Of a stretch of 64,000 nt of DNA, positions 31,837 through 40,770 are shown piece by piece; positions within the stretch are counted from its first letter, which is position 1, and the number at the start of each line of letters is the position of its first letter. The position numbers and the translations under genes are program-made. The stretch lies in the IMG/VR virus record IMGVR_UViG_2597490185_000004, positions 43,004 to 107,003 of that record; one strand, 5' to 3'. Source of the DNA: a virus. The notes beneath the pieces were generated by a model. That model was not told the origin of the DNA, searched no databases, and saw nothing but the letters and a program-made list of their open reading frames with translations.

Positions 31837-32709
31837 TTAAAATGAACCGAATGCGAATGAACGACCGTTAACCGATATACTTGCTGACTCATTCATTGGT
31901 TTTGGTTTAACTGCCGGCGTTTCTTTTGGTAAAGATAATTCCTGCTCTGTTGATTCATCCGATAAAATTATCCCTGTGGAATAACCATCGGAAAGCAACG
32001 CTATTTTCCCTAACTCACCCGTTATTTTTGAATTCTCGTGATTAACGACAGCTTTAAATGAAAAACTCTCTGTATGTAAGCTGAATTCGTTGCTTAAATC
32101 CGTTTTACAGAGTTTTTCTGGTATAACTGGCGTTATCCCATTCTCAACTTCATAAAAGCTGTCTGAGAGCGATTTAGACATATTCCCGATAGCTGAATGG
32201 TAATAAGCGTCATACCCAAGTTCTTCATTCAACAAAAGATGGTCTGCTTTCGCGTAAATTAACTTGCGATTATCCTCGATATTGTCTGCGTCAAGATCGG
32301 GTGTGTATGCCATCAGGATAAAATCACTTTTACCGCCTAAAACGGTATGAATCCGTGTAATGGAAACTAAAAGATCTGTAACACCGTCCAGCATTTTCAT
32401 TGATAACCAGTTGTCAATTTTATCTACAACCTCTTTACCAAATACTTTTCTGAGCTTTGAGCTATGCCAGTTATTATCAGTGATCGTAATCCGACCTGAT
32501 TTATCATCATCGGCAAAATCCAAACCCACCTTGGCTATATGGTGATTTTCATTTGCTGGCTGTTTGTATTTCACAGCCGGCTCAACAATGCCTCTAATGT
32601 CAGCGAAAATACGCGGCAAGCGGGAAATATCCGCAACTGCTACCGCTAAAATGGTAGCTTGTTGAATTGGTAACTTAATGGACATACGAACGACCGCCTT
32701 TAGATTCAA
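31837..32709 (-). CDS. hypothetical phage protein
   Basis: 290 aa ORF in the operon; start uncertain. Confidence 0.7.
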   Translation of the reverse strand: MNLKAVVRMSIKLPIQQATILAVAVADISRLPRIFADIRGIVEPAVKYKQPANENHHIAKVGLDFADDDKSGRITITDNNWHSSKLRKVFGKEVVDKIDNWLSMKMLDGVTDLLVSITRIHTVLGGKSDFILMAYTPDLDADNIEDNRKLIYAKADHLLLNEELGYDAYYHSAIGNMSKSLSDSFYEVENGITPVIPEKLCKTDLSNEFSLHTESFSFKAVVNHENSKITGELGKIALLSDGYSTGIILSDESTEQELSLPKETPAVKPKPMNESASISVNGRSFAFGSF

Positions 32710-34594
32710 CCGTAATTGTTTCTCTGAACCATGATTTCATTTCTTTGTGAGAGATAATCATCACGGTTCCGCGTTCACGGGCTTTGACTTCGAGGATTGC
32801 CATTAATCGCTCAAGACCAGCAATATCCAAGGCATCATCGATTTCATCACCGATAAATAACTGGATATTCTTAGTAGCTCGGCTGGCAACTAAATCCTGC
32901 AATGCTAAGGCGGTGGCAATACGGACTTTACGCTTCTCACCACCGGATAATCCGGCAAACGACTTGGAGGCACTTTCTTTAGAAACAGAGATATTGAATT
33001 TGTCTTTGACTTCACCTTTTTTTGTGGTTTCCATCGTAGACCAAACCGCTGTTATCAATCCGTCTGAAAGCGTATTAAGATATTCCGCCGTTCTTGCATT
33101 CAGGAAAGGAGTAACATTGGATAAAATATGGCTACGGACACCAGACGGAGAAAACACTTTCCGTGCATGTTCCAACAAGGCACATTCGTCATCTAATGTT
33201 CCTTTGTTTTTCTTTAAAGTCTTTAAATTATCTTTCAGGAGCGCGGCTTCGTGTTTTGTCTTTTCAATAAGCGCGGTAAACGGATTTAACTCAGCTTCAA
33301 TCGTCTTTAATTTCTCAATTTCAGCTTTCAAGGCACGCTTGCCGGCTAGTTCATCGTTGGTCGATTTTTCAATGTAAGTACGCTGTCTTTGGAATACGGC
33401 GATCTTTTCCATTTCTGTGTCAACGTTAGGTCGAGTGGCTTTCAGAGCATTAAGTGCCGTTTCTGCTCTGGCGATTTGGTCGGTTACGGCGGTTATTTCA
33501 GGCGCTAGTTCGGTAGTAATACGTGCTATATCAGCTTTCGCTTTTTCGATATGAACTTTTTTTACCGTTTCTAAATCACTCTCACAGTATGGTTTCCCGC
33601 ATTCAGTACATGGCACACCCACTTTAGCCGAAACCTCGGTGGCGTTCGTCATGGCGCGTTTTGCCTGAGTTTTCAGACGGTCGATTTCGTTTTGTTTAAT
33701 TGTCTGCGTTGAACGAGCTTTGGCAATTGCAGATTCCAGTTCACTGACTTTACGGTCATGCCCAGTTACGCCAGAAATACTGGCACGTAATCCCCTTATC
33801 TTTTCATCAATCGACTCAAGAGTAGGATTGTCACGGTTGGATAACTGTAGTTCGGCTAAATTTATTTCCGCCGCACCAATTGCTTTCTTCGCTTCATCAA
33901 TCCGCAATTTGCGACCGGCTTCCCATGTCTCAGCGGAATTTAAGGTTTCTTCCGCAGTTTCGAGGGCACTACTGAAAGAGCGATCCATAATCGTAATCTT
34001 GCCGGCTACACCATCACGCTCTGCCAATTTTGCGTTATGGCGATCACGGGCAATCTCATAGGAATGAGTTAAACGATCCACACCAGCAGCCTCTTCAACA
34101 ATCGCTTTCAGGTTCTTATCTGTCATGCCGGGTAAATCGGGCATATTTTCCTGACTGGCATAAATTGAAGCCAGAAAGACGTCTTTTGAGGCTCCGATTA
34201 GTTTCTCGATAAATTCCTGAGTGAGTTTATCTGTGCCTTTGGTGAGATCGCCATCTTCACATGAAACTATCAAACGGTTTTTATTCGCGGTATGAGCACG
34301 ATGTCGCATGATTGAGTAACGTTTCCCGTCTTCATCTTCGACGATGATAGCGACACGACAGTTCTTTTCATGATCGGTACTGAGCACATCATCAGCTTTT
34401 AAACCGTTGGCTGTTTCGCCATATAATCCCCAACACAGGGCGTTCATTAACGTTGACTTACCGGAACCATTACTGTTCGCAGAGGTATCATCGGTGTTTT
34501 TGCCTTGGATAAGGATCAAACCACGGTCGTTTAGTTCGACTTTTGCTTCCGCTATACGCATGAAGTTTTCTGCCGTCATTTTGATAAATTTCAT
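32675..34594 (-). CDS. SbcC/Rad50/gp46-like SMC ATPase
   Basis: NGSGKST, coiled coil with CTEC hook, LSGGEKRK, DEIDDALD. Confidence 0.92.
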   Translation of the reverse strand: MKFIKMTAENFMRIAEAKVELNDRGLILIQGKNTDDTSANSNGSGKSTLMNALCWGLYGETANGLKADDVLSTDHEKNCRVAIIVEDEDGKRYSIMRHRAHTANKNRLIVSCEDGDLTKGTDKLTQEFIEKLIGASKDVFLASIYASQENMPDLPGMTDKNLKAIVEEAAGVDRLTHSYEIARDRHNAKLAERDGVAGKITIMDRSFSSALETAEETLNSAETWEAGRKLRIDEAKKAIGAAEINLAELQLSNRDNPTLESIDEKIRGLRASISGVTGHDRKVSELESAIAKARSTQTIKQNEIDRLKTQAKRAMTNATEVSAKVGVPCTECGKPYCESDLETVKKVHIEKAKADIARITTELAPEITAVTDQIARAETALNALKATRPNVDTEMEKIAVFQRQRTYIEKSTNDELAGKRALKAEIEKLKTIEAELNPFTALIEKTKHEAALLKDNLKTLKKNKGTLDDECALLEHARKVFSPSGVRSHILSNVTPFLNARTAEYLNTLSDGLITAVWSTMETTKKGEVKDKFNISVSKESASKSFAGLSGGEKRKVRIATALALQDLVASRATKNIQLFIGDEIDDALDIAGLERLMAILEVKARERGTVMIISHKEMKSWFRETITVESKGGRSYVH

Positions 34595-35679
34595 TATTCT
34601 TTGCCCTCTGCCTGAGATAACACATCGTCACAAATCGCTGTCAGTTTGGTTACATCAATCGAGGTGTCGCTTTTTCCCATTAGAATGCAGTAGTTGCCAA
34701 CCGATTCTTTCAAGCTGTCAATTTTGGCTGTACCCGCTGTTGCTGTCGTCGCGCCAACCAGAGCTGATTCCTTAGTAAAGTTTCTCGTTACACCGCTTGC
34801 GCCGAGTAATTTCACCATTTCTTCAATTTTTTTACCTTCTTCATCGTCTTTGATTACGGCGCGGATGCGAACGTAATTCCCTTTGATTGCCGATTCTTCC
34901 ATATCGCCGTCTAATTCGAGGAAAACAGGGGCTTGTGTTGAGTATTGTGAATATGATCCATCAGCATTAATCAACATATAACCCGCTGTAGTGCCAATAT
35001 CGCCCCAATTCTGATGCGTCAGTGCTCCGATAGAGATAACGCCGGGAATGACCTCTTTGTGGTTGTGATAATGGCCGGAAAGGACATAGCGGAAACCCAA
35101 ACCTTCAAATTCTTCGGCTTCCATTCCAACATCTGGCATACCCGGTATCGCTTTATTGATTGAGGTATGGATGATCAGGTCATTTGGAACAGTGGGATCG
35201 AGTGTTTTTGCCAACTCTTTAACGGTGTTTAAAAGCTCTTTGTGATCGTTGTACCAGCTAATCATGTGAACTTTAACACCATCGATATCGAACGTTTGAG
35301 GTGTCTTAGAGCACACAATCTTCGCGCCAATTTTGGTAAATGATGCTGAGGCGTTGGCTGAGAACACAGAATCATTGGTTTCTAAGTCGTGGTTGCCAGC
35401 GAGAATATAAACATCTAAACCGAGCGTATTTATGATCCAATCATACAACTCAGATGTGAAGTGCAGGACGGTTGGGGCAATTGAACCACGAACATGAAAT
35501 ACGTCACCACCATGAAACAGAGCTTTTGCACCAGCTTCTTTAGCGGCAACTGCGGCTTCTCGCGTGGCATCTAACTGTATTTTTAATCGAGAATTCATAC
35601 CATCATGAGCGGTTGAAGCAAAGGCATCCCATACATGGTAGTGCGTATCAGATATTAAGCCGTATAACGCTTTCTTCAT
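34594..35679 (-). CDS. SbcD/Mre11/gp47-like metallophosphoesterase nuclease
   Basis: SDTHYH, GGDVFH, AGNHD, SGHYH. Confidence 0.92.
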   Translation of the reverse strand: MKKALYGLISDTHYHVWDAFASTAHDGMNSRLKIQLDATREAAVAAKEAGAKALFHGGDVFHVRGSIAPTVLHFTSELYDWIINTLGLDVYILAGNHDLETNDSVFSANASASFTKIGAKIVCSKTPQTFDIDGVKVHMISWYNDHKELLNTVKELAKTLDPTVPNDLIIHTSINKAIPGMPDVGMEAEEFEGLGFRYVLSGHYHNHKEVIPGVISIGALTHQNWGDIGTTAGYMLINADGSYSQYSTQAPVFLELDGDMEESAIKGNYVRIRAVIKDDEEGKKIEEMVKLLGASGVTRNFTKESALVGATTATAGTAKIDSLKESVGNYCILMGKSDTSIDVTKLTAICDDVLSQAEGKE

Positions 35680-38779: not shown

Positions 38780-39240
38780 GTCATTTCCTTATTCTGGCTA
38801 TTTCCGATTTAATATGAGGTGCACAGAAGAAAATCCACAACCAGCATTTTAGGAATGCTTTTGATATGTTGCGGCGAACCAATGACTCGAACATTAATCC
38901 GGCACCGCCGATGTAAAGTAAACCCATCAATACGATAAAATTATCCATCCTAGCACCATTAGGTAAGTGAATACATATTTTATAAGTTGTGAAAATAAAG
39001 GTAAAGTTACATTGTATAAACCTGCACATTCAATGCTTGTTTAAATTCTTATTTTTCATAATTAACCTCATTTAGATAAGTTTATTGTTTTCTTATTGAT
39101 GTTATTTTCTCAAAATAAAAAAGGCACTCAATAGAGCGCCTTTAAAAAGTGAGATTAGTTTTGAGAGCCAAATCTTGCGTCCAATTGCCGACTGATTACT
39201 TGAAGTGTATACTTAATATACACATAATGGAGGTATACCT

Positions 39241-39459
39241 ATGAAGCATAGAATTAGCGTAACCGTAGATAGAGAGCATTATCAGGTACTTAGTTCTTCC
39301 GGGATAAATATTTCTGGTCTAGTAAATGACGCCATAGGAAAAGAAGCCCGCAGGATAAAGGCCGAAAAGTGGAAAGCAGATAACCGAGAAGGTATGGCGG
39401 AAGTTGCAGAATTTATAGCACAATATGGTTCGTTCGCTGAAGAAAACAGGAATTGGTGA
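39241..39459 (+). CDS. ccdA: CcdA antitoxin
   Basis: [10 protein letters not shown]...NISGLV...EARR..AE.WKA.N.EGMAEVA.FI...GSFA.ENR.W, colinear with F CcdA. Confidence 0.96.
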
Positions 39460-39460
39460 T

Positions 39461-39766
39461 ATGCAATTCATTGTTTATGAATACAAGCGGGCAAGCCATT
39501 ACAAAATGTTTGTCGATGTACAAAGCGATATCATCGATACTCCTGGGCGGCGTATGGTCATCCCTTTGATTGAATCCCGCCATCTTTCTGAAAAAGTGAA
39601 TAGCTTATTGTTTCCTTTGGTTAGAGTCAACGATGAGGATTATCGGGTGATGACGACCGAACTATCAAGCGTGTCTGTAAACGTTATTGGAGAGGTCATT
39701 ACCGACGTTAGCAGTGCCGCCGACGCGATTAAGAACGCCATCAACCTCATATTCCCCAGAACATGA
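39461..39766 (+). CDS. ccdB: CcdB toxin with non-canonical C-terminus (IFPRT instead of MFWGI)
   Basis: [10 protein letters not shown]...[20 protein letters not shown]...[11 protein letters not shown]...IKNAINL; 101 aa from ATG 39461. Confidence 0.95.
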
Positions 39767-39777
39767 GGTTGATGGCG
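39736..39777. repeat. 15-bp perfect inverted repeat around a 12-bp invertible loop
   Basis: cgccatcaacctcat [attccccagaac] atgaggttgatggcg. Confidence 0.95.
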
Positions 39778-39940
39778 CAATTGACCACTATGGTTAGTAA
39801 TGTAATGGGTTTTGTAGCCGTCATCACTTTTATTATCTCAGATTTGAGCTGACAGCTTTCTCATGCAGCACACAACACACAATCAAATCTTACAGTCAGC
39901 TCATAGCTGACTGTAAGATTACAACACCTATCCTGTTGCT

Positions 39941-40318
39941 TTAATACCAGCCATTCTCTGCTATTTGGCATCCGAGCGAAAAGATTTCATCTTGGTAATC
40001 TCTAATAACTTGCTCTATGGATTGCTTTTGTTCAGTCGTTAAAGAGTCCCAAATTTCAATAATAGGCTTATCGTGTTCTGACCATTCTATTGGGGGTTCA
40101 TTATCCTCTGGAGCAGTCGGAATTTGCGTTTTTACGTTGATATCAGGCGATTGACTTGACGGAGTACATGAAATATCACCCACTATCACTCTTACAATAC
40201 CTGTTCTATCACGAAGGATAATGTTGTTGTTATACAGCTCCATACGCTCTCCTTTAGAGCAGTAAACATCAGTTTCTGATTTTTTCTGTTTTTCCACTAG
40301 TGATACCGTGAAGTGCAT
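39941..40318 (-). CDS. hypothetical protein, possibly a fragment
   Basis: 125 aa ORF; start uncertain. Confidence 0.4.
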   Translation of the reverse strand: MHFTVSLVEKQKKSETDVYCSKGERMELYNNNIILRDRTGIVRVIVGDISCTPSSQSPDINVKTQIPTAPEDNEPPIEWSEHDKPIIEIWDSLTTEQKQSIEQVIRDYQDEIFSLGCQIAENGWY

Positions 40319-40770
40319 GAAGCCTGATGGGGCAGTTCAGATGTAAACAAATCAGTACCAATTGAGTTCGTTACACTCATCGATACAATCCCGAAAGAAA
40401 GAGACTGTTTCATTGTGTAACCCAAGCTGTCTATGCAATTTGTTGGCGCAGTTCTTTCTTGATTAGCCATTGTCTTTCGCCTTTTTGTTCAATTGAATAA
40501 GTGATCGTTTTGCATTCGCGGCATTGCGAATATAAAAAAGACGTTCCTGAAAAAACTCTTTCTCTTTAGGTACATGCTTCAAAAATGAAAGATTTGCTTC
40601 TAACGATTGCCTATACATTAATATTTCAAACATAATTGTAAGTAAGTGAATACATATTGTTTTGGTATAATAATGATCTAAAGCAGGTATACAAGAAATT
40701 TATATAAGAGTTAAAGGCGGGAGCAATAGAAAGGGCGCCAATTGCGCCCCAGTGTAGACAATAATATTGG

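Follow-up and report, generated by a model that had tools for sequence, protein, structure and literature searches.

Intermolecular template switching between short inverted repeats is known to invert the spacer that separates them and to homogenise or extend the arms (PMC8604942). Ten spacer inversions have been described in yeast coding genes, one of them with arms that grew from 5 bp to 16 bp and with five residue changes, and sequential reversals of such inversions have also been noted in yeast (PMC8604942). Loop inversions are also found in rRNA hairpins (PMC8794818). In Escherichia coli, quasi-palindrome reporters (lacZ) have been used to study template switching, and fluoroquinolones, through gyrase poisoning, promote this switching at quasi-palindromes (PMC7202029). 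Recombinase-operated switches, including fimS, hin and those of Clostridioides difficile (PMC9286219), likewise consist of an inverted repeat flanking a segment whose orientation alters the gene product. The toxin CcdB is treated in PMC1635281, which describes residues W99-G100-I101 as critical for toxicity (citing Bahassi 1995) and Trp99 as stacking on Arg462 of GyrA, and which gives mutants at positions 99-101 as non-cytotoxic with their regulatory function kept (citing Bahassi et al. 1995 and Dao-Thi et al. 2005). The decay of toxin-antitoxin (TA) loci through inactive toxin mutants has been reviewed (PMC7167474); ccdO157 (Mine et al. 2009, as cited in that review) is one of the decaying loci in which the antitoxin has been kept and the toxin disabled.

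The locus described here lies in a window of 64,000 nucleotides, by which is meant the whole stretch of DNA that was analysed, and concerns the 3' end of a ccdB gene. As in the template-switch spacer inversions that follow the Ripley model (PMC8604942, PMC8794818, PMC7202029), inverted-repeat arms enclose a block that reads as a reverse complement, length is kept and several adjacent codons are changed; as in yeast REG2, where the arms went from 5 bp to 16 bp (PMC8604942), the arms are more perfect than those of the outgroup. The locus differs from those cases in belonging to a bacterial phage-plasmid, in its long spacer (12 nt, with six bases changed and four residues replaced) and in that the inversion coincides precisely with a toxin's functional tip, while one arm contains the stop codon. 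The non-cytotoxic F-plasmid CcdB mutants (Bahassi et al. 1995, as cited in PMC1635281) share with it a change at positions 99-101 on an intact protein body. Those mutants are, in that account, laboratory point mutants, whereas the window allele is natural and would have had the three residues and M97 replaced in one event. Decay of TA loci as described in PMC7167474 proceeds by deletion, nonsense or point mutation and mostly on chromosomes, whereas here the lesion is a micro-inversion and the replicon is plasmid-like and should profit from addiction. The recombinase switches invert hundreds of nucleotides rather than 12; here, in addition, only one orientation is found, the repeat is not conserved in relatives and a recombinase gene was not observed beside ccdAB. 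The neighbouring ORFs of 35.8-44 kb yielded no invertase domain. Most probably a replication error that happened once in the past, and not a switch, gave rise to the inversion, which became fixed in one clonal SSU5-like phage-plasmid. The features of the locus, by position in the window, are as follows.

39150..40593, no strand assigned: variable backbone insert bearing ccdAB (backbone blastn blocks stop at 39150 and resume at 40593)
39171..39772, plus strand: ccdAB cassette, ~89-90% nucleotide identity with same-genus chromosomal copies (blastn against L024, L025 and L007)
39185..39228, plus strand: promoter-like sites and a small palindrome recognised by eye, a possible ccd promoter/operator upstream of ccdA (consensus scan only)
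39241..39459, plus strand: ccdA antitoxin gene, intact, 72 aa (Pfam PF07362, E 3e-24, full length)
39461..39766, plus strand: ccdB toxin gene, 101 aa, ending IFPRT in place of MFWGI (Pfam PF01845, PDB alignment and 122 homologue C-termini)
39736..39750, plus strand: upstream hairpin arm, coding (A-I-N-L-I/M codons), exact complement of 39763-39777
39751..39762, plus strand: inverted 12-nt spacer, the reverse complement of the ancestral (M)FWGI codons as judged by mismatch counts against seven relatives
39763..39777, plus strand: downstream hairpin arm holding the stop codon (39764-66), its last 5 nt beyond the homology with same-genus ccdAB copies

The replicon is an SSU5-like phage-plasmid whose own replication and recombination set lies within 28840-50567 and includes a Rep3 initiator, a gp32-like ssDNA-binding protein, Pol III alpha, a RecA-like protein, a 5'-3' exonuclease, SbcCD-like proteins and ribonucleotide reductase. 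The ORFs of 35.8-44 kb encode the Rep3 initiator, small unknown proteins, the RecA-like protein, the exonuclease and gp32. Rep gave a 77% match to a Xenorhabdus bovienii plasmid; with Photorhabdus a different genus from that of the host, this tentatively points to Xenorhabdus as the host genus. The insert that bears ccdAB is missing from the backbone relatives in Moellerella and Providencia. A separate perfect 16-bp inverted repeat with a 3-nt loop is present at 39886-39920, between ccdB and a convergent 125-aa ORF, and has a partial copy at 39838-39853. Stretches of ~70-80 nt with 73-76% similarity to this element occur in two same-genus genomes (G024 and G003), and the element may represent a repeat or a site bound by protein.

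The two ccd genes form one operon, with the cognate antitoxin directly upstream of the toxin and the ccdA stop codon 1 nt ahead of the ccdB start. The full-length match to PF07362 supports the description of ccdA as intact in the initial annotation. CcdB was matched by PF01845 over residues 2-98 (E 1.5e-28) and by F-plasmid CcdB in the PDB (E 3e-35), the latter alignment halting at residue 98, exactly where the inversion begins. With homology across the whole fold and a cognate ccdA upstream, the protein belongs by descent to the CcdB family, the gyrase-poisoning toxins of ccdAB type II TA modules, but it is predicted to be non-toxic. The toxicity motif Trp99-Gly100-Ile/Val101 is absent and the gene ends P-R-T, M97-F-W99-G100-I101 having given way to I-F-P-R-T. 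That the inversion takes away the W99-G100-I101 needed for poisoning, as had been proposed, agrees with the account of these residues in PMC1635281. Since all three critical residues are replaced, loss of gyrase poisoning in the IFPRT allele is very likely, by analogy with the F-plasmid mutants. The host GyrA retains Arg462 and is identical to that of E. coli over residues 452-472, from which an intact CcdB should be toxic in this host. No second CcdB homologue was found in the host genome.

Apart from its end, ccdB carries no other lesion. Relative to the same-genus allele, dN/dS was 0.08-0.12 for ccdB codons 1-96, and ccdA gave a value of 0.10 against the same-genus relative. The low ratios and the lack of a further lesion in ccdB imply that either the event is recent compared with the divergence or the protein has been retained as a co-repressor; purifying selection on the remaining ccdB would also fit a retained function. 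The promoter-like sites upstream of ccdA were no more numerous than the hits in shuffled sequence and are weak evidence for a promoter.

At the end of ccdB, the 15-mers at 39736-39750 and 39763-39777 are exactly complementary and bracket the 12-nt loop 39751-39762, which as written is ATTCCCCAGAAC. In this orientation the C-terminus is LIFPRT*. Reverse-complementing the loop alone yields a ccdB end of MFWGI, and the length of the gene is equal in both orientations because the stop codon sits in the downstream arm. A re-check of the sequence confirmed both the 12-nt loop between perfect 15-bp inverted repeats and the equal-length conversion of IFPRT to MFWGI that had been claimed for it. The loop is partly self-complementary, the full structure being a quasi-palindrome in which 19-nt arms with one mismatch surround a 4-nt centre, and inversion alters just six of the 12 loop bases. 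By our own arithmetic, a perfect 15-bp inverted repeat with a spacer of up to 20 nt is expected by chance ~0.001 times per 64 kb. Folded as RNA, the hairpin has an energy of -29.5 kcal/mol (z = -8.4). A role as an intrinsic terminator was considered and rejected, as a T-tract is absent and a terminator scan made no call.

Comparison with relatives established which orientation is the derived one. Against seven relatives the loop has 6-7 mismatches as written and 0-2 once reverse-complemented (0 to L002 and L022; 1 to L024, L025, L001 and L004), and DNA alignments to relatives stop exactly at the loop. The nearest intact relatives, three same-genus copies (L007, L024 and L025; ~90% nucleotide identity), have the loop uninverted. 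Plasmid ccdAB relatives (71-79% nucleotide identity) and the same-genus chromosomal copies (~90%) all end MFWGI, LFWGI or MFWGV. A WGI or WGV end is present in 114 of 122 homologues and the PRT end in this allele only (P0001, and P0002 with a longer start); among 5.8 billion proteins, none was found at an intermediate identity of 93-100% to the window CcdB. All six changed bases are the reverse complement of the relatives' bases. Six clustered changes that share this property are therefore not independent substitutions, and an origin of FPRT by separate point substitutions was ruled out. By these mismatch counts the loop is inverted relative to the ancestral state, which supports the earlier proposal that it derives from an ancestral MFWGI end. 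Four other CcdB homologues (P0052, P0090, P0111 and P0113) end WRI, WDI or WEI, with Gly100 replaced, and may be non-toxic alleles that arose by point mutation.

The arms are not shared with these relatives. No complementary stretch 3' of the stop codon was found in any of the relatives of 71-79% identity. In L007, L024 and L025 homology to the window ends at 39772, the post-stop sequence is ATGAGGGTGAAATCC, and only a 6-bp perfect stem plus scattered pairs can be formed; the RNA fold of these ~90% relatives is no better than shuffled sequence (z = -0.7, against -8.4 in the window). Perfect arms of 15 bp are thus a peculiarity of this lineage, and the downstream arm runs for its final 5 nt beyond the shared cassette. 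The same three copies carry a different 7-bp hairpin over the same gene end (L007 1495-1520, minus strand, also in L024 and L025), in which the W-G-I codons GGGGGAT pair with ATCCCCC 11 nt downstream, and the ccdB 3' end therefore appears to be hairpin-prone in the clade.

A degenerate pattern that allowed either loop orientation together with an arm gave one match in a scan of one genome per species, a remnant in Photorhabdus khanii. Within the genus of the host the pattern was found in G000 and G012 only, and no match was obtained in metagenome contigs or viral contigs. The remnant, on the chromosome of P. khanii NC19 (L046 892-920), consists of 29 nt identical to the core of the window hairpin. 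It is situated downstream of a peptidase-like gene and 3 nt from a ~45-nt repeat that is multi-copy in Photorhabdus genomes. Because the element is nearly palindromic, the 29-mer can be read in two ways: either with the loop uninverted between 6 nt of the upstream arm and 11 nt of the downstream arm, the latter continuing into ATA-GCAAT (GGC-GCAAT in the window), or, on the other strand, with the loop inverted between 11 nt of the upstream and 6 nt of the downstream arm. Similarity of the flanks is weak for both, at 10/20 and 8/20 identities, respectively. The former reading is moderately preferred, as it involves a single breakpoint, which abuts the multi-copy repeat. If it is right, the ancestor would have had an 11-bp arm followed by three mismatches, and the window would differ by the spacer inversion plus three bases (39774-76) that perfect the arm, that is, by an extension in the same event. 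No close relative was found of the downstream flank 39778-39936, and the ancestral flank is not recoverable by synteny; as this flank is shared by no relative, any reconstruction of the arm before the event is uncertain.

A one-off template switch would account for the inversion and for the state of the arms. Before the event, the 3' end of ccdB would already have lain in a small quasi-palindrome, made up of the MFWGI-stop codons, which are partly self-complementary, and of a few complementary bases beyond the stop. In the course of replication, the nascent strand would have crossed at the upstream arm to the opposite strand, copied from it, in reverse, the spacer and probably the entire arm, and then returned to its initial template, leaving the 12-nt spacer inverted and 15-bp arms more perfect than in the outgroup. 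In our own derivation, copying from 39762 back to 39736 off the opposite strand yields 39751-39777 exactly as it now stands, down to the exchanged bases of the mismatch 39751/39762. The changed block is the reverse complement of the ancestral block with its length preserved, and the flanking arms were partly pre-existing, as a 6-bp stem in L024, L025 and L007 and possibly as 11 nt in P. khanii. The window arms, which exceed those of the outgroup in perfection and run 5 nt past the shared homology, suggest that the arms may have been extended in the same event, with the qualifications that the downstream flank is common to no relative and that the orientation of the P. khanii remnant is ambiguous. 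The change of M97-F-W99-G100-I101 to I-F-P-R-T would remove the residues that contact Arg462 of GyrA and leave the remaining CcdB, ccdA and the reading frame intact. Fixation of such a mutant in one clonal phage-plasmid lineage would amount to toxin-first decay of the addiction module. The event was probably single and recent.

The orientation of the loop in the population was assessed from raw reads and assemblies. Raw reads of run X5, which has the same species label and is possibly from the source strain, were 100% identical to the window across 39100-40300 (1.2 kb), with both strands agreeing. At the reporting threshold of 2% and a depth of ~185x at the hairpin, no alternative letters were present in the loop. 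The exact IFPRT protein was recovered on 8-9 contigs of Logan assemblies from seven other runs (ERR3464985/86/88/92/93/94 and SRR32300891). These contigs match the window at 100% identity over as much as 6.3 kb, with the loop inverted in all; they may come from one clone and hence are perhaps not independent samples. One of them (L032, from ERR3464986) stops inside the loop at 39761, likely due to low coverage rather than a graph break at the hairpin; the other contigs break at unrelated places. No uninverted allele was found on the same backbone, all contigs with the exact CcdA or the downstream 100-aa ORF being identical and OFF (inverted), and no ON (MFWGI) allele with these arms was found among 5.8 billion proteins or in scans of genome, metagenome and viral DNA. 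The OFF state looks to be fixed in what is apparently one clone, and the ON state with these arms was never observed. Two checks proposed in the initial annotation had the following outcome. A count of reads by orientation returned the sequenced orientation, the other being absent at 2% or above in ~185x, and a search of homologues for both alleles and the arm returned MFWGI in relatives, with neither IFPRT elsewhere nor a shared perfect arm.

The same annotation had interpreted the locus as a phase-variable, reversible ON/OFF switch, a contingency device without an invertase in which the hairpin flips the last four codons between a toxic MFWGI and a harmless IFPRT end and so maintains ON and OFF subpopulations. 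The architecture lends itself to this: perfect 15-bp arms lie inside a quasi-palindrome with 19-nt arms, both states preserve the frame and the stop codon, ccdA and the remaining ccdB are intact and under purifying selection, and sequential template switches can reverse spacer inversions (PMC8604942). With Arg462 in the host GyrA, moreover, the ON state would matter. A switch of this kind is nevertheless very unlikely. Coexisting orientations were not found at 2% or above in the ~185x reads, a single run that excludes flipping above ~2%, and all assemblies of the plasmid are OFF. Repeats conserved with both states in nature were likewise not found, the ON allele with the same arms being absent from the protein, genome, metagenome and viral scans and the arms unconserved in intact relatives, and neither a selective logic nor a regulator is evident. 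One orientation in reads and contigs, and solely the other in relatives that have no perfect arms, is largely the outcome that the initial annotation had itself set against its proposal. As a mechanism of phase variation the locus would be remarkable if true, but the evidence gathered is against it. Perfect arms do permit re-inversion at mutational rates, so that the proposal keeps a small probability, and rare re-inversion at mutational frequency is possible. A hairpin-templated toggle, in which template switching at the 19-nt-arm quasi-palindrome flips the final four codons of ccdB often enough to matter biologically in the absence of an invertase, is highly improbable. Since gyrase poisons stimulate mutations of this type, CcdB may promote its own inactivation, and the rate of such a toggle might, by analogy, be self-stimulated through gyrase poisoning; if true, the toxin would raise the rate of its own inactivation.

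Breakage and rejoining could also have produced a one-off inversion, through short-homology recombination between the arms or processing of an extruded cruciform or hairpin, in which the SbcCD-like nuclease and RecA-like recombinase of the element itself might have acted. The end product would be the same as that of a template switch, and the element encodes SbcC/SbcD-like proteins (32678-35679), together with a RecA-like protein and a 5'-3' exonuclease next to ccdAB. This route is considered unlikely, in that recombination of pre-existing arms would not perfect or extend them, whereas the window arms exceed those of the outgroup; arms of 15 bp around a 12-bp spacer are also very short for reciprocal recombination, and the documented route for inversions of this size is template switching (PMC8604942, PMC8794818). 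Chimeric reads can arise at hairpins and one Logan contig (ERR3464986) terminates in the loop at 39761, yet an assembly or sequencing artefact has a negligible probability. The raw reads at ~185x agree on both strands without variants and the identical sequence was assembled in seven other runs, by which an assembly artefact is effectively refuted.

The preferred template switch places the locus among ordinary cases of TA toxin decay, what is new being the micro-inversion route and its precision. Toxin-first decay, judged from the genes that remain, is also the condition of the Photorhabdus ccd loci, of which five to six of seven keep ccdA DNA with ccdB truncated or missing. Most chromosomal ccd loci of ~74% identity, namely L052 and L054-L058 (Photorhabdus) and L017 (the second ccd locus of G012), retain ccdA-like DNA next to a ccdB that is cut to 31-88 residues or missing, and full-length ccdB is present in L053 and L009 only. 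Micro-inversion may be added to deletion, nonsense and point mutation as a route of toxin decay, and annotators are warned that a ccdB gene can be complete and score well in Pfam and yet have lost its function. The window allele represents an unusually clean natural case of a single template switch that would have rewritten several adjacent codons in a bacterial gene, and the locus offers a natural substrate on which rates of spacer inversion, and their stimulation by gyrase poisons including CcdB itself, may be measured.
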